Of a stretch of DNA of 64,000 bases, positions 46,881 through 64,000 are shown piece after piece (the first letter of the stretch is position 1; every line of letters starts with the position of its first letter). A program made the translations under genes and the position numbers. This stretch comes from Escherichia phage ESCO5, in the sequence record NC_047776.2. One strand, written 5' to 3'. Under the pieces are notes generated by a model. The model made no database searches, was not told where the DNA came from, and saw only the letters and a list, made by a program, of their open reading frames with translations.

Positions 46881-47204
46881 TCAACACTTATTTTTGGTAA
46901 GTAGATAAATCAATTGTTCACCTGCTTCTGGTGCATATAGTGCTTTAGTATCGAAGTCAAAGAAGTGAGTGACTCCTGTTACTTTGGATGCCTGAATAGA
47001 TAATCGTGCAAGCTTAAGCAGATTATCCATTTCTGCAATCTTTGCACGAAACACTGCACGTGTAGCGTCAAAAGCTGCATGTGGCATGTATTTACGATTT
47101 AGACTACTACGTTTAAATTTACGATAATCTGCAATGATCTTGTTACGTTCTTTGTTCAAGTGCTTTACCAGTGCAGTGTATACATGTGGTTCTTTGTTAG
47201 CCAT
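46881..47204 (-). CDS. hypothetical basic protein
   Basis: Start placed at the ATG after GAGGAG (MANKEPHVY...); track ORF extends to 47237. Confidence 0.5.
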   Translation of the reverse strand: MANKEPHVYTALVKHLNKERNKIIADYRKFKRSSLNRKYMPHAAFDATRAVFRAKIAEMDNLLKLARLSIQASKVTGVTHFFDFDTKALYAPEAGEQLIYLLTKNKC

Positions 47205-47409
47205 TGTTAATCTCCTCTTCATATGTTGGTAGTGCATGGTATGCGATCACAGGTGCCAAGTCAAAATAAAAATGACCATTGATAACAGCTATCGTGCCAT
47301 TGCGTGTTTTGTTAACTTCACAGAATCCCTTCTTGCCGTTTGCCATGATTACAAGCCACTCTCCGATAGGAACATCCTCGGTACCAGATACTTTAATCCA
47401 TCCACTCAC
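47197..47409 (-). CDS. hypothetical protein
   Basis: 70-aa ORF. Confidence 0.45.
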   Translation of the reverse strand: MSGWIKVSGTEDVPIGEWLVIMANGKKGFCEVNKTRNGTIAVINGHFYFDLAPVIAYHALPTYEEEINNG

Positions 47410-47663
47410 TTTACTTCCCCTTTGTAATCGGACACTATACCAGGTCTTACTTTTGCCTTAAGATGTTTCAACTCTACCATAGGAGTTGCCACTTGTATAG
47501 GGCTAACTTCAACCTTGTAGATAGTATATTCATAAGTCGCATATTTACCGATGGAATGCAAATACTTAATTGCGTGTTCAGGGGAATCTGCTTCAACATA
47601 CCCTAAATCTTTCGTAGTGCGGCCTTCACAGTCGCCTTCTGTAGTTACGTGATAAAGTGTCAT
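47406..47663 (-). CDS. hypothetical protein
   Basis: 85-aa ORF. Confidence 0.5.
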   Translation of the reverse strand: MTLYHVTTEGDCEGRTTKDLGYVEADSPEHAIKYLHSIGKYATYEYTIYKVEVSPIQVATPMVELKHLKAKVRPGIVSDYKGEVK

Positions 47664-47983
47664 AAAACCTCCTTCTTGTTGGCTGCTTCAATCATAGCGT
47701 TAAGAGTCTCCATACCGCTTTCAACTGCTTGAGCAATCTCTTGGAACACAGACTTCTTAAAGATGTATAAAGACCCTGCCTGTAAGCGTTGCACACAGCA
47801 TAAGATCGCTTGGTGATCCATCAGGAAGTCGCCGTAGGCTGAATCAATCTTACCTGTAATTGGGTTGTCTCGTGAGCGAGGATCGTATTCTAATGTGATA
47901 TGCGTTACACCAGGTAAAGTAACAAACTGACAACGGATGTTGACACGTGGTGCAATTGACACGCTAAACAGACTGTTTGACAT
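47660..47983 (-). CDS. hypothetical protein
   Basis: 107-aa ORF with RBS GAGGAGG. Confidence 0.5.
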   Translation of the reverse strand: MSNSLFSVSIAPRVNIRCQFVTLPGVTHITLEYDPRSRDNPITGKIDSAYGDFLMDHQAILCCVQRLQAGSLYIFKKSVFQEIAQAVESGMETLNAMIEAANKKEVL

Positions 47984-48130
47984 TTAAACCTCCTCATAGT
48001 AAGGCAAAGCTTTAATCAACTGTTCTGAAATGCCATTCTCTGTCCATGTAACCCCGTTGTCAAGAGAAACATACCCTTTCTTATCGATAAATTTACGGAG
48101 ACAACCAGTGAACTTGTTTTTGTAGATCAT
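47984..48130 (-). CDS. hypothetical small protein (below the ORF-track cutoff)
   Basis: 48 codons; ATGA overlap with the upstream stop; AAGGAAAG upstream. Confidence 0.3.
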   Translation of the reverse strand: MIYKNKFTGCLRKFIDKKGYVSLDNGVTWTENGISEQLIKALPYYEEV

Positions 48131-53891: not shown

Positions 53892-54071
53892 ATGGCACGT
53901 TTAGCAGACCATGAAATCTTTAAACCTATTCTGAACCACTATGATGAACTTAAGGCAGTGTTGGATTGTTATAGAGAGGATGAAGAACGTTTGGAAGTGA
54001 ATCTTAAGATAGTTCTGATGAAAGCTTTTCAAGACGGGCAAGCTGAAGTCTTAGGAGGCATGAAAAAATGA
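53892..54071 (+). CDS. hypothetical small protein
   Basis: Start placed at the ATG after AAGGAGA (MARLADHEIF...). Confidence 0.45.
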   Translation: MARLADHEIFKPILNHYDELKAVLDCYREDEERLEVNLKIVLMKAFQDGQAEVLGGMKK

Positions 54072-54610
54072 GAATAACTGATGAATATGTATTCTTCTTT
54101 TCACATAAAGATGTGTTTAGTAATTGGTATATTGCACCCTTTACAGAAACCGAACCAGGTTACAATCAGACATTTAATTGTGTCGAACAATACATGATGT
54201 GGCGTAAAGCTTTGCTTTTTAATGACCACAACACGGCACAGGCTATTCTGACTCATAGTTTGATACGGAAAGATGAGAAGATCCAAGCTTATTACAAACG
54301 TATGGGTAGGGCAGTGTCAGATTTTGATAACAACGTATGGGAAGAGAACCGTGAGCGTATTGTTATGCGAGGTTTATGCTTGAAATATGTACAGAATCCA
54401 GATTTGTATGCAGACTTACACCTTTACCAATACAAAACGTTTGTTGAAGCAAGTCCTTACGATAAGGTTTACGGTATTGGAATGGGAATGTATGAACCAG
54501 GGGTGCTAAATCCGGTCAACTGGAAAGGGCAAAATCTTTTAGGTAAATATCATAACAAACTGATCGAAATACTTTTCCCAGACAAAATACCGCAAAGACG
54601 ATATTTGTGA
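54068..54610 (+). CDS. NADAR-domain (YbiA-like) protein
   Basis: 180 aa; FSNW, CVEQYMMWRKALLFND and WEENRERIVMRGL align with the YbiA/NADAR pattern (FSNF ... EHYFQAQKF). Confidence 0.6.
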   Translation: MRITDEYVFFFSHKDVFSNWYIAPFTETEPGYNQTFNCVEQYMMWRKALLFNDHNTAQAILTHSLIRKDEKIQAYYKRMGRAVSDFDNNVWEENRERIVMRGLCLKYVQNPDLYADLHLYQYKTFVEASPYDKVYGIGMGMYEPGVLNPVNWKGQNLLGKYHNKLIEILFPDKIPQRRYL

Positions 54611-54852
54611 TATTTTAACTTTTTTCATTTTTAGAACAAAGGCGTCACTTTGTAGCACAGAAATAAGGCTCCTACAGCACCGTAGAGAGCCTATTATTTT
54701 GTCCTATACAAACCCTTGTCTTTTTCAGTTTGCATCACTAGGATTCGATCTGAGTGGGTTCCTGAAGGTCTGCCAATAAGATTAAAGGTTATCTCAAATT
54801 CCCACTACCTATTATCTCAAAAATCCCTCAAATTATTTAAACTTTTTAAGAA

Positions 54853-55038
54853 TTTACAAAAGTGAAAGTTGAAAACCAAAATTTAAAGTTTAGGAAAATT
54901 ATCTTAAAATGTCAGATACAAAACAAAACTCAAAAGTCAAGGAAAATTTTAAAAATTTTGCGCGCCCACAGTATTTAAAGTTTTTTTGCTTTTACAAAAA
55001 TGAAAGTACAAAAGCAAAATTTAAAGTTTACAAAAATT
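54853..55038. repeat. iteron-like imperfect direct repeats in an AT-rich non-coding region
   Basis: About 48-bp units at 54853-54900 and 54991-55038 (roughly 42 of 48 identical), with a degenerate third copy between them. Confidence 0.5.
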
Positions 55039-55050
55039 TATGCAGATGGG

Positions 55051-55166
55051 AATGAGAAGAGTTCTCATATGGAAATGCAAATGATAATGATTCGCATTTA
55101 GGTTTATAAATGAGATTGATTCTTATTTGATAAGGTAAATGATAATCATTCTCATTTAGAGAATGA
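55051..55166. promoter_or_regulatory. array of four palindromic operator-like sites, two closely matching the Fur-box 7-1-7 pattern
   Basis: ATGAGAA-gag-TTCTCAT (55052-55068); TGATAATgATTCGCA (55082-55096); aaatgagattgattcttattt (55108-55128); TGATAATcATTCTCA (55140-55154) with TCATTCTC/GAGAATGA inverted repeat; spacing about 29 bp. Confidence 0.45.
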
Positions 55167-55415
55167 CGCGCAGGGGCGGTGTTTGTCTCGCGCTCCCGTG
55201 TCCCCTCGCCATGTAATAAGAATAACAGATCCAGCCAGGAAAGCAAGCGATTATTTTATCTTTACATTTCTTTACAAATATATAGCGCCCAGCCTACCGG
55301 CGATCAACCTTCCAACCAGCGCCCTGGTATGTTAGCCCCGCCTTTACGCCGTGGGGGTGGCGCTTCCTCTTCTGTATGTAAAACAGTATAAGCCCGATCC
55401 CTGGGCTTGTCAAGA

Positions 55416-55682
55416 TTATTTTTTGTTTTCTTGCCAGGATAGGACACCTAACCAAAAATGCATATCGCCCCGCGCCCCTGGTGGGATCTTGCTTTCCCCG
55501 CCGCCACTGCAAGCCCATAAATAACCATCAGCGAACGGATCAAAGTTTTCTATTTCTTCCACCTTATGATCGCCCAGGTTGAGAACTGTTTCAACCTTTA
55601 AGCCCGTTGCGCTTGCTACCTGGTGCACCGTGCCGCCTTGCCAGCCTAATGAGTGCATAAGGTGTAATGTAGTATTCGTCAT
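55416..55682 (-). CDS. hypothetical protein in a GC-richer segment
   Basis: 88-aa ORF on the - strand with codon composition visibly GC-richer than the rest of the window; weak RBS. Confidence 0.35.
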   Translation of the reverse strand: MTNTTLHLMHSLGWQGGTVHQVASATGLKVETVLNLGDHKVEEIENFDPFADGYLWACSGGGESKIPPGARGDMHFWLGVLSWQENKK

Positions 55683-55790
55683 GGTGTCGCCCTTTCTTTG
55701 TTGTGCGCCCTGGTTGGCGCGGTAGAAAGATGATAGCCCTTTCTTTTATATATAGCAAGCAAAAAGAAAATAAAAAGATTGAAAAAGTGA

Positions 55791-55849
55791 TTGACGTTCG
55801 CCAGGTGGCGGCATAATATTTACCACGTAGGGCGGCAATGGTGCCGCTC
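55791..55849 (+). promoter_or_regulatory. promoter plus 5' stem-loop cassette
   Basis: TTGACG-N17-TAATAT then ttaccacgtaGGGCGGCAatggTGCCGCtca hairpin just downstream of the -10. Confidence 0.55.
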
Positions 55850-55868
55850 ATTATTTGGAGTTAAAATC

Positions 55869-56066
55869 ATGGCAACATTGCACATTGTGGCGAAAGCTGG
55901 ACAAATAAACGTGGTAGTAAACGGTTTTACTGAGTTCAGTCATCCCCAGGATGATCATGAAACGGTTTTATCTTTCATTGATTCTCTGTTAGAAATGGGA
56001 GTCATTACAGAAGACCAGCACGCTACAAAATGCAAGCGCGTTAATCAAATTGCAGGGATAGAATAA
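55869..56066 (+). CDS. hypothetical small early-type protein
   Basis: 65 aa from the ATG after GGAG; the track start at 55791 lies inside the promoter. Confidence 0.5.
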   Translation: MATLHIVAKAGQINVVVNGFTEFSHPQDDHETVLSFIDSLLEMGVITEDQHATKCKRVNQIAGIE

Positions 56067-56073
56067 AAAGTAT

Positions 56074-56131
56074 TGACAACAAACAACAACCTGATAAGAT
56101 GTATCACATAGGGCGGCGGAATGGTCCACCG
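56074..56131 (+). promoter_or_regulatory. promoter plus 5' stem-loop cassette
   Basis: TTGACA, -10-like TAAGAT, then atagggcggcggaatggtccaccgc hairpin; the ctgataagatgtatcacatagggcggcgga segment recurs at 57531. Confidence 0.5.
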
Positions 56132-56157
56132 CTCACAACAGAAGAGAGATTATAATC

Positions 56158-56430
56158 ATGGCATCATATAGCGCAACAATGATCGTAGCTGGCACCACTG
56201 GTAAACCTATGAGCGGTGGCGGATCTTTCGCAAATATCAACATTGACGGGCGTTTATCCCTGGACGCAGCGATCACCGTGGCGCGGGAAACATTTAAGAA
56301 AGAATGTAAATTCAATAAACAAGATTATCTCGGTTTTGCTATTGAAAAAACCGCGCGCTTTGTTGATTATAAAAGCCCGAAGATGGTTGATACTACACTA
56401 AAAGCGCAAGATGTAGCGTTTTTGCTTTAA
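56158..56430 (+). CDS. hypothetical small early-type protein
   Basis: 90-aa ORF. Confidence 0.5.
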   Translation: MASYSATMIVAGTTGKPMSGGGSFANINIDGRLSLDAAITVARETFKKECKFNKQDYLGFAIEKTARFVDYKSPKMVDTTLKAQDVAFLL

Positions 56431-62862: not shown

Positions 62863-63069
62863 CCCGAACAATGTTGATAGATTCCGCCTATGAAAAACCG
62901 ACACAGAACAAAATTGCATAATTTGCGCTATCGAGCTAATCAACCAGCAAACGAATAACCATACACCCCAGGGTTACAGGCTGTTAGAGAGCTATTTAGA
63001 GCGGTTAAAATCGATCAACAACCAACAACAAACAACCGAAAAAGGCTGTTTTCTTCCTTTCCAGTGCAA

Positions 63070-63084
63070 TGATAACCATTATCA
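63070..63084. promoter_or_regulatory. Fur-box-like 7-1-7 palindrome
   Basis: TGATAAC-C-ATTATCA matches the Fur 7-1-7 consensus (tGATAATnATTATCa) at 14 of 15 positions. Confidence 0.4.
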
Positions 63085-63139
63085 TCTACCCTTGCGTATC
63101 TATACAATATAAGTGCATAACTATAATGTTGATAATAGT

Positions 63140-63330
63140 TCGCAACAACTAACCAACCAACAACCTAAAACAATAAGCAAACTAATCATAATCAAAGGAA
63201 TAATAGCAAGATGATTGATAACGACAAACAATCAAACCATGATGAATACTAAGCAAGATAACGATAACACGACAAAACAACCAACTAACGAACAATAACA
63301 AACGAAACCATTAAAATAATAACTATTAGC
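63140..63330 (+). repeat. A+C-rich strand-skewed low-complexity region (non-coding)
   Basis: About 190 bp made almost entirely of A and C with few G or T (caacaactaaccaaccaacaacctaaaacaataagcaaac...); no ORF. Confidence 0.5.
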
Positions 63331-63480
63331 AAAATAGTGCCTGAATGAAATCATTACAAAACGAATCATTCACAGAGTCATCATTAGCACGCTATGCCGG
63401 ACACATAGCGAGCTAATAATAAGCCAACTACACCCCAACAATCATAACCATCGGTGACGGTTATTTCTTGTTACTGCGTA

Positions 63481-63499
63481 GCTTGCAATAATTGCAAGC
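63481..63499. repeat. perfect 19-bp palindrome
   Basis: gcttgcaat-a-attgcaagc. Confidence 0.6.
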
Positions 63500-63823
63500 G
63501 TAATGACGCTTACACTTATTGCGCTGGCTTATTATTAGCATTATATGTAATTACCAAGATCATAACATTAGCGCAATAACAATAATCATTGTAATGATTA
63601 TGTAAGGAAACAATTAGCATGGCAATAATTATGGGGGCAATGGGAGGATGATTATCATCATTCCGATACATTGCACACTATGCACATAATAGAATAAAAG
63701 TCAATAATTTTGGGGGCGAAATGTTACCGCCACAGGCGGGAATGTTGAGCAAGTTCTCTTAAACGTAAATAAAATCAGAAAATTCTTGATTTATTTTGGC
63801 TTTTATGTTAATAAACGTTTAAA

Positions 63824-63838
63824 TAATAATCATTCTCA
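63824..63838. promoter_or_regulatory. Fur-box-like palindrome
   Basis: TAATAAT-C-ATTCTCA, same half-site (ATTCTCA) as at 55140-55154; related sites at 63581-63601 and 63648-63663. Confidence 0.35.
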
Positions 63839-64000
63839 TATAAATAATAGTCTGCTTGTCATGAGCGGGATTAGTTGACATTGTTCCGTCATATGATGAA
63901 GTTGCCAAACCATTGATAAATAAGTGTTTGTGTGATTTATAATCAAGTGGCCCACCTTGTCGCTATGTTGGCATGAGCCTTGCATAAGTCATTGAATACG

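Follow-up and report, generated by a model that had tools for sequence, protein, structure and literature searches.

A candidate pair of minus-strand non-coding RNA genes in a gene-free gap of phAPEC8-like phages and their relatives

Escherichia phage ESCO5 (sequence record NC_047776.2) carries a GC-rich segment at positions 55155-55430 of the 64,000-nucleotide (nt) stretch analyzed here, which we call the window; the segment sits in a gap of about 1.1 kb without genes. An original prediction, made from the letters of the window alone, had proposed that this segment, which follows a row of boxes resembling the binding site of the host regulator Fur, is a Fur-controlled small RNA (sRNA) or structured leader read rightward, or else a remnant of acquired DNA. 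The comparisons described below lead us to another gene model, in which the segment holds a pair of early non-coding RNA genes on the minus strand, with host-type sigma-70 promoters and products that would act in trans. Judged from sequence, we hold this gene model, taken as a whole, to be somewhat more probable than improbable. It is the best supported of the explanations considered, and its RNA genes would be conserved across the Stephanstirmvirinae and most Vequintavirinae while being absent both from Rfam and from the literature searched.

Our comparisons support a non-coding segment that is held by strong purifying selection and bears compensatory base changes of the kind seen in structured RNAs. 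The predicted promoters, P1 and P2, are followed by a core RNA with a candidate pseudoknot and by a stem-loop termed module A, respectively; their coordinates are collected in Table 1.

Conservation and coding potential of the segment

The window derives from a phAPEC8-like coliphage (Phapecoctavirus), and the 1.3 kb around the segment are 96-98.5% identical to many Phapecoctavirus genomes. Its close relatives at this segment, phAPEC8, ESCO13, ASO2A and PNJ1809-36, are virulent Escherichia coli myophages of the subfamily Stephanstirmvirinae. A sensitive blastn search with positions 55020-55440 matched 368 phage records. In the Stephanstirmvirinae the entire query could be aligned; in the Vequintavirinae genera the alignable part was only 55138-55382, at 69-77% identity, and did not extend into the neighboring DNA, including most of the adjacent genes. 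Distant taxa with a match to this part were Certrevirus, Mydovirus, Seunavirus, Henunavirus, Justusliebigvirus, unclassified Klebsiella and E. coli phages, and others, and in the rV5-like Vequintavirus the left part, 55138-55256, was alignable alone. All 15 distant genomes that were fetched have the match inside a stretch of 0.8-1.2 kb that is either unannotated or carries short open reading frames (ORFs) of inconsistent frame and strand. Conservation inside such an inconsistently annotated stretch is the pattern of a functional non-coding element, which is how we would read the segment.

The base composition of the segment had been said to differ sharply from that of its flanks, and it does: its GC content is 48.9%, compared to 39.4% for the whole window, which corresponds to the 98.8th percentile among all intervals of 276 nt. 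The GC-rich sequence forms two blocks, 55165-55222 (62%) and 55283-55384 (60%), with a linker of 30% GC between them, and the regions to the left of the segment have 25-26% GC. It had further been held that no convincing ORF crosses the segment, the 70-amino-acid (aa) plus-strand ORF being rich in Arg, Ser and Pro and lacking a ribosome-binding site. This ORF (55179..55391, with a GTG start) is indeed Ser/Arg/Pro-rich and has no Shine-Dalgarno sequence, and the relatives bear the judgment out. Among genomes 87-98% identical to the window, no open frame across the segment is conserved, the longest stop-free stretches of the plus-strand frames vary, and close relatives differ within the region of the 70-aa ORF, in a hairpin loop, by insertions and deletions (indels) of 1, 2, 3 and 4 nt, which are not confined to multiples of three. 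Because the frames differ and indels of 1-4 nt separate close relatives, we judge the segment to be non-coding. Several annotators have called ORFs across it (e.g. phAPEC8_00257 and F1M1E), with frame and strand varying by genome.

The proposal that the segment is a remnant of horizontally acquired DNA came with a BLASTN comparison against host genomes as its check, which did not support it: a search against 5,426 complete E. coli genomes gave no match to the segment. A conserved 18-mer, searched against 185,579 species genomes, gave 65 matches, which is about the number expected by chance, and only one of these was a true homolog by nhmmer. This match (L089 948-1048, JAEZZU010000352.1; nhmmer E = 9e-26) is a full-length homolog of the core on a 4-kb contig in a metagenome-assembled genome labeled 'Proteobacteria bacterium', a contig that is probably mis-binned phage DNA. 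Rfam 15, searched at permissive E-values with the window region and seven homologous loci, gave no match in the element, including to the RyhB-related models, and ARAGORN found no tRNA or tmRNA gene in the window.

Predicted minus-strand promoters and RNAs

P1 is the best sigma-70 match in 54400-56300, agreeing at 11 of 12 positions. In 40 distinct copies from about eight genera its hexamers keep their register (−35: TTGACA, TTGACG or TTGCAA; −10: TATACT, CATAAT, TATATT, TATAGT or TATAAT), while the 17-18 nt of spacer between them change completely. The spacers are GC-rich hairpins, several of them with GNRA loops (GAAA, GCAA), and their G.U pairs can form in the minus sense alone, so that the spacer would also work as an RNA hairpin of the minus strand. 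In the window, the P1 spacer hairpin was flagged as terminator-like for the minus strand in a sequence scan, and it is probably also the 3' hairpin or terminator of the upstream minus-strand gene at 55416..55682. The same hairpin, gcccgatccctgggc (55392-55406), had been paired with a T-run, together spanning 55392-55430, as the plus-strand end of the segment. Hairpin and T-run are both present, but this interpretation of them does not hold. Read on the other strand, the T-run encodes the C-terminal end (..QENKK*) of the minus-strand gene, and since it begins about 10 nt past the stem, the two do not form a canonical plus-strand terminator; neither is kept in other genera.

Conservation of the core starts a few nt past the expected P1 start, at ACAG (55375), and ends with the invariant tail (55293). 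A covariance model built from the first alignment found 42 true core copies in the phage loci examined and none in the rV5-like, T5-like (L101) or chance-match loci. In this core, the hairpin domain is well supported. RNAalifold and pair counts on a MAFFT alignment showed a swap between A-U and G-C in 13 of 29 sequences as well as G-C flips. When homologs were folded one by one, at least six variants of the stem sequences came out, but a single architecture: a lower stem, one bulged base, an upper stem and a loop of 4-8 nt. In the alignment of model hits, six of the seven hairpin pairs have changes on both sides. Over the hairpin pairs together, 58 cells were changed on both sides, compared to 13.0 in shuffled alignments; none of 500 shuffles reached 58, and all slid controls collapsed. 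These counts were made on an alignment of 43 model hits (the 42 genuine copies and one weak one) with 39 distinct rows. Thus the structure and covariation check that had been suggested for the segment turned up compensatory changes in the hairpin, but hardly any variation in the pseudoknot stem S1 or in a long-range helix. Stem S2 is CCCC:GGGG in one core type, CCAA:UUGG in the other and CUCC:GGGG in the copy of locus L027, and S1 never varies among the copies. An alternative long-range helix, GGCG:CGCC, which uses the tail and is mutually exclusive with S1, has G.U variants only.

Several other interpretations of the core were tried and dropped. The long-range helix GGCGG:UCGCC proposed by RNAalifold is not kept in type-2 cores. 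A role of the leader as a Shine-Dalgarno-like or GGA-rich sequence or as a CsrA sponge was given up since some homologs have A-rich leaders without GGA. Some resemblances seen by eye were partial and not backed by Rfam or ARAGORN: GGAAGGUGGAUC recalls a Shine-Dalgarno sequence and its complement the 3' end of 16S rRNA, CCAGGUCGGAAGG recalls 4.5S RNA, and the tail recalls a tRNA D-arm.

Phages with a core have one copy of it, the exceptions being Pectobacterium phage P7_Pc, Raoultella phage Ro1 and Escherichia phage cardinal with two each in tandem, and every copy is preceded by its own P1-like promoter. A second type of core (CCUACCAACGGCGnUAAACUUGG..., with a different hairpin) is the sole copy in KP12, A7_1, FKP3 and pEa_SNUABM_55, and the promoter-distal copy in P7_Pc, Ro1 and cardinal. 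Modules that are duplicated together with their promoters would seem to behave like genes. Between its two cores, and in the same orientation, Ro1 has an ORF of 197 aa (L033 6420-7013), which RefSeq annotates as an HNH endonuclease and for which a Pfam scan returned no significant domain. This ORF has no separate promoter, and its Shine-Dalgarno sequence lies 16 nt beyond the point where the first core ends. A homologous ORF lies between the two cores of cardinal (L105 328-921), and in P7_Pc only a 3' remnant of it is left, comprising the last ~75 nt (L010 1815-1890). Because the inserted ORF depends on read-through from P1, we infer that P1 is active and that no strong terminator follows the core; the arrangement implies that P1 transcripts would read through the core.

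P2 is placed 165 bp to the left of P1. In 19 distinct copies it consists of TTGCAA, TTGATC or TTGCTT, 16-17 variable nt, and TATATT, TATTAT or TATTCT, with the stem of module A following about 6 nt later. The two TGTAAAGA repeats upstream of P2 are kept in 19 distinct sequences, covering all P2-bearing genera. Most genera have them 3 nt from the P2 −35 hexamer; the genus of this phage has them at 12-13 nt, about one helical turn farther away. Candidate roles for them are an UP-like element, an activator site, or the 3' region of the P1 transcript.

Module A is present in all genera, including the rV5-like phages, which have two copies of it and no core. There, the second module A replaces the core downstream of a P1-like promoter and has its own Fur-like box. 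Folds of single sequences give an outer stem and an inner hairpin that presents AGACAAWCA. Outside this phage, the outer stem is formed by AUAGCGGG.. pairing with CCCGCUAU, and its pairs vary between A-U, G-C and G.U when read in the minus sense, with A.C at one position in six sequences.

Since hairpins are strand-symmetric, the choice of strand needs separate points. The consensus fold of the core has −14.4 kcal/mol in the minus sense and −10.6 kcal/mol in the plus sense, 23 of 29 core sequences have the better fold when read in the minus sense, and the full 244-nt segment from the window gives −74.2 (minus) versus −64.4 kcal/mol (plus). The CUCC:GGGG form of S2 and the G.U variants of the alternative GGCG:CGCC helix also favor the minus sense. 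Together with the orientation of both promoters, the GNRA loops and G.U pairs of the spacer hairpins, and the direction of the inserted ORF, this favors the minus strand as the strand of the RNA.

According to the gene model, P1 would start a leftward transcript near 55378-55375, the first ~85 nt of which would fold into the core of pseudoknot and hairpin followed by the tail, and P2 would start a second RNA displaying the module A loop in its 5' stem-loop. Host sigma-70 RNA polymerase would read both, probably early in infection, although that the promoters fire is itself something that we infer. Both transcripts would run left into the Fur-like palindromes and the AT-rich repeats, and their 3' ends may form at the palindromes, either as hairpins or at protein roadblocks. 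As no ORF lies downstream, the RNAs themselves would be the product; our guess is that they would act in trans, by base pairing or protein binding through their invariant single-stranded stretches.

A number of observations weigh against this model. The alignment behind the covariation count and the variants of the alternative helix had been fitted to a model with the hairpin built in, S2 is backed by just one compensated pair and one wobble, and the core is mostly invariant, which leaves very few substitutions to support S1, the long-range helix and most of S2. With z-scores of −1.18 on the minus and −0.66 on the plus strand, the fold energy does not differ significantly from that of shuffles, and the fold energy of module A favors neither strand. 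A scan of the minus strand after the core found no canonical intrinsic terminator. A duplex-energy scan of the window with the conserved single-stranded stretches returned self-antisense and weak background matches only, with no convincing target. In the literature searched, nothing relevant turned up on transcriptomes, sRNAs or Fur boxes of the Vequintavirinae and Stephanstirmvirinae, and the iteron-like array and AT-rich repeats around the segment suit a DNA-level element as well.

Table 1. Features of the gap and its flanks, in window coordinates
Feature	Position	Strand	Remarks
Promoter P1	55385..55413	-	−35 TTGACA 55408-55413; 17-nt spacer 55391-55407; −10 TATACT 55385-55390
Core RNA	55375 -> 55293	-	~85 nt; 70-77% DNA identity where flanks no longer align
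Core purine-rich leader ACAGAAGAGGAAG	55363-55375	-	
Candidate H-type pseudoknot	55362-55336	-	CGCC-A-CCCC(C)-AC-GGCG-UAAAGGC-GGGG; S1 CGCC:GGCG, S2 CCCC:GGGG, A-rich loop 3 UAAAGGC
Core bulged hairpin domain	55335-55305	-	upper stem ACCAG/CUGGU at 55315-55328
Core invariant tail AUCGCCGGUAGG	55293-55304	-	
Two direct repeats TGTAAAGA nn TGTAAAGA (TGTAAAGAnnTGTAAAGA)	55259..55276	-	10-bp period; just upstream of the P2 −35
Promoter P2	55219..55246	-	−35 TTGCTT 55241-55246; 16-nt spacer; −10 TATTCT 55219-55224
Module A RNA, 5' stem-loop	55163..55212	-	begins at predicted P2 start; outer stem AUGGCG..CGUCAU
Module A conserved loop GAGACAAACACC	55178-55189	-	
Four Fur-like 15-mers TGAnAATnATTnTCA	starts 55053, 55082, 55111, 55140	.	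exact 29-bp period, 0-2 mismatches; within 55053..55167
Further Fur-like half-site GAGAAT	55160-55165		
NADAR-domain gene	54068..54610	+	left flank
Bidirectional terminator-like hairpin	near 54667-54700		left of the segment
88-aa gene, function unassigned, PHROG 19316	55416..55682	-	right flank

The 88-aa gene to the right of the gap is found in the Stephanstirmvirinae and also in W70 and some Certrevirus phages. Its place is taken in Mydovirus and Seunavirus by an unrelated minus-strand gene of about 62 aa, CR8 lacks the 88-aa gene, and the phAPEC8 record omits it and annotates a plus-strand ORF across the RNA locus instead. We considered its product as an RNA-binding partner and dropped this idea: it has no Pfam domain, belongs to a PHROG of unknown function, and is missing in several RNA-bearing genera. 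Beyond it lies a run of short plus-strand genes, each with its own sigma-70-type promoter. These early promoters (55791-55850, 56073-56135 and further right) are followed, about 8 nt after each −10, by a conserved stem-loop, TAGGGCGGC..GCCGCTCA, which is annotated as a phage promoter (PHIRE) in phAPEC8 and as a terminator in ASO2A; these elements resemble stem-loops at the 5' ends of early mRNAs. Like P1, the promoter at 55791 contains a spacer hairpin.

The Fur-like array and rival explanations

The last Fur-like box, GTAAATGATAATCATTCTC (55135-55153), agrees with the Fur consensus at 16 of 19 positions, where 0.04 such matches are expected per window, so a Fur-like box does precede the segment, as had been stated. 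The 29-bp spacing of the boxes recurs in Cronobacter phage CR8 and Proteus phage Mydo, and in one relative (L019) the 7-1-7 Fur motif is perfect (TGATAATCATTATCA). Relative to P1 and P2 the boxes lie downstream, at about +50 to +160 from the inferred P2 start and about +215 to +325 from the inferred P1 start, which makes classical Fur repression of initiation unlikely. A protein at the boxes would at most roadblock the leftward transcripts, set their 3' ends or the extent of read-through, or act on weak rightward promoters of the AT-rich region.

To the left of the boxes follow 250 bp at 25% GC. Within this region, 54829-55038 (25% GC) contains a 138-bp direct repeat, with copies of 72 nt that are 82% identical, and promoter-like TTTACA-18-CAAAAT sites on the plus strand; the corresponding region of other genera has GATC-rich repeats of 63-78 bp and repeats of 12 bp. 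No DnaA, LexA or IHF sites beyond one-mismatch noise were found in 54600-55800. Further Fur-like boxes occur in the seemingly non-coding, AC-rich region 63000-63900, at 63070 (TGATAACCATTATCA), 63130, 63643 and 63824 (TAATAATCATTCTCA).

An identical 21-mer box, AAATGAGAATCATTCTCATTT, is shared by 55073-55127 of the window and the T5-like Escherichia phage HASG4 (L101 740-1270). The HASG4 region, which is non-coding and has been discussed as the injection-stop signal, lies where the left terminal repeat ends on its inner side; it has four more Fur-like boxes, two DnaA boxes and a perfect LexA box, TACTGTATATTTATACAGTA. Because unrelated phage families share the boxes, they point to a host factor.

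The surroundings of the segment give rise to the main rival of the RNA gene model, which takes the entire gap of ~1 kb for a replication origin or a similar cis-acting DNA hub, with the palindromes as iterons, the 25% GC repeats as the unwinding element, P1 and P2 as sources of activating or priming transcripts, and the core as a primer or R-loop former. Four palindromes at exactly 29 bp beside a region of 25-26% GC with a 138-bp direct repeat are what one would look for in an origin, and other genera offer GATC-rich and 12-bp repeats and 29-bp-spaced boxes in the same gap; moreover, both promoters point into the repeat region, KP2025 has a helicase gene directly upstream, and several genomes have ligase genes directly downstream. 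The palindromes and AT-rich repeats are, however, located outside the GC-rich segment proper. Simple transcriptional activation would, however, leave unexplained an invariant core of ~85 nt with compensatory pairs, its two types and its tandem duplication, and the core duplicates independently of the repeats. The boxes match the consensus of a host factor and recur in a T5-like non-coding region that holds the candidate injection-stop signal, T5 replication origins having reportedly been mapped elsewhere in the T5 genome. DnaA and IHF sites are missing from 54600-55800, and the cumulative GC-skew minimum of the window lies at ~47-48 kb with positive skew on both sides of the gap, although transcription bias dominates skew in phages. 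All in all, we regard the origin as unlikely, albeit as the alternative to be taken most seriously. The skew minimum at ~47000-48000 coincides with the turn of gene orientation from minus to plus and is itself a candidate divergence point or origin.

A hub for host factors at the level of DNA, without a functional RNA, is decidedly unlikely in our estimate. Here Fur would sit at the boxes and other proteins at the TGTAAAGA repeats and the core, serving timing, genome entry or titration, as in the injection-stop repeat region of T5-like phages. That region has indeed been described as an untranslated, conserved stretch at which injection stops (bioRxiv 10.1101/866236), identical or near-identical boxes stand beside DnaA and LexA boxes in the T5-like non-coding region at 9.2-10.9 kb, and much of the core is invariant in sequence beyond what its structure calls for. 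Yet loops of variable length and compensatory changes in stems are the signature of RNA or single strands, which a duplex binding site would not show; P1 and P2 are kept as promoters, and T5-like phages share the boxes only, the GC-rich core being absent (L101). The rightward transcript originally envisaged, starting at a Fur-controlled promoter at the last box and ending at the hairpin and T-run, is highly improbable. The quality of the last box speaks for it, as do TTGAAT-N18-cAGAAT in most Vequintavirinae, a possible weak plus-strand promoter with a box in its spacer that this phage does not have, and the mirror image of S1 on the plus strand (55347-55362), which precedes a pyrimidine run and was flagged as terminator-like; the covariation, too, is compatible with the plus strand. 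In the window phage, a scan of 55020-55431 found no plus-strand promoter: the GATAAT at 55140-55145, which had been taken for a −10 hexamer, has no −35 at 16-18 nt, the only candidate being a TTGATT 19 nt away, and the equivalent of the Vequintavirinae −35 is GTAAAT. P1 and P2 point from the minus strand toward the box instead, the T-run of the proposed end is coding sequence of the minus-strand gene, neither it nor the hairpin is conserved in other genera, the plus-sense consensus fold is weaker and relies on a helix broken in the type-2 core, the G.U evidence favors the minus sense, and there is no similarity to RyhB or another Rfam family. What stands of an sRNA or structured leader is thus its non-coding, conserved and RNA-like character; strand, promoter, terminator and control logic have to be replaced. 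Finally, a small protein-coding gene or decaying host DNA might be suspected from the ORFs of several annotators and from a base composition unlike the flanks, but is hardly credible given the conflicting frames and strands of these ORFs, the frameshifting indels among near-identical relatives, the missing E. coli homolog, and a conservation across genera that is too strong for decay.

Known systems and significance

The locus resembles the Fur-repressed sRNAs of the RyhB type (RF00057) in being a short non-coding RNA locus beside Fur-box matches. It differs from them in having no Rfam match and no Rho-independent terminator, in the position of its boxes, which lie downstream instead of overlapping the −35 and −10 hexamers, and in its transcribed strand, which is opposite to the one first proposed. 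A similar layout is known from small early phage RNAs made from host-type promoters, such as the oop RNA of lambda and the put RNAs of HK022. As in these, a sigma-70 promoter is directly followed by a structured RNA without ORF, and a put-like structure begins a few nt past the start. There is no sequence relationship, however. The put RNAs affect, in cis, the genes that follow them, whereas this locus is followed by none on the minus strand; oop is complementary to part of a gene, whereas this locus overlaps none.

Transcripts at origins have precedents in the origin promoters of T7 (phi1.1A/B) and T4 (oriF/oriG), in transcriptional activation of the lambda ori and in RNA II of ColE1. With these and with iteron origins the locus shares promoters that lead into an AT-rich region beside regular dyad-symmetric repeats. 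In contrast to them, it has no initiator gene tied to the repeats and no skew signal, its repeats match a host-factor consensus and are common to unrelated T5-like phages, and its RNA module duplicates independently.

H-type pseudoknots with an A-rich third loop are known from the preQ1-I and SAM-II riboswitches and from frameshift stimulators. The candidate pseudoknot is similar in its dimensions (a 4-bp S1, an L1 of 1-2 nt, a 4-bp S2 and an A-rich L3 of 6-7 nt) and in the purine-rich stretch before it, but it has no downstream ORF to regulate and no Rfam hit. A further candidate, the ToxI-like pseudo-antitoxin RNA of the related phage phiTE, with its tandem 36-nt repeats, was set aside, as it is encoded at a different locus; the gap discussed here corresponds to phiTE_078/079 and has no 36-nt repeats.

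Repeat Region 3 of T5-like phages has been described as a conserved untranslated region with the injection-stop signal (bioRxiv 10.1101/866236). Like the gap in the window, it is large, rich in palindromes and direct repeats, and untranslated, and it contains the 21-mer AAATGAGAATCATTCTCATTT; unlike the gap, it has DnaA and LexA boxes and GTGCAAATCCGACA repeats, and no homolog of the core or of module A.

Going beyond the RNA gene model, one may imagine an undescribed family of phage regulatory RNAs, made up of the core with its pseudoknot and hairpin and a companion stem-loop RNA, that is coupled to an array of host Fur sites, with the array setting transcript length. Lytic phages of Enterobacteriaceae would in this way read the iron status of the host, or titrate Fur as their genomes multiply, and so tune early development or replication, and the array would have been recruited independently in the injection-stop region of T5-like phages. 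We offer this idea tentatively and think it quite unlikely to be right in full.

The relatives of phAPEC8, rV5 and PVP-SE1 count among the broad-host-range coliphages that are isolated most often, and their use in therapy is widely proposed. The gap of ~1 kb, which is unannotated or misannotated with spurious ORFs in hundreds of genomes, holds the most conserved DNA of its neighborhood. For annotation, our analysis amounts to a correction in which the spurious ORFs are removed, two predicted early leftward promoters are placed, and a covariance model recognizes the element. If the RNA gene model is true, these phages would possess a conserved non-coding RNA gene of a kind that is rare in virulent enterobacterial phages, and this gene would help to approach the role of the neighboring Fur-like array that they have in common with T5-like phages.

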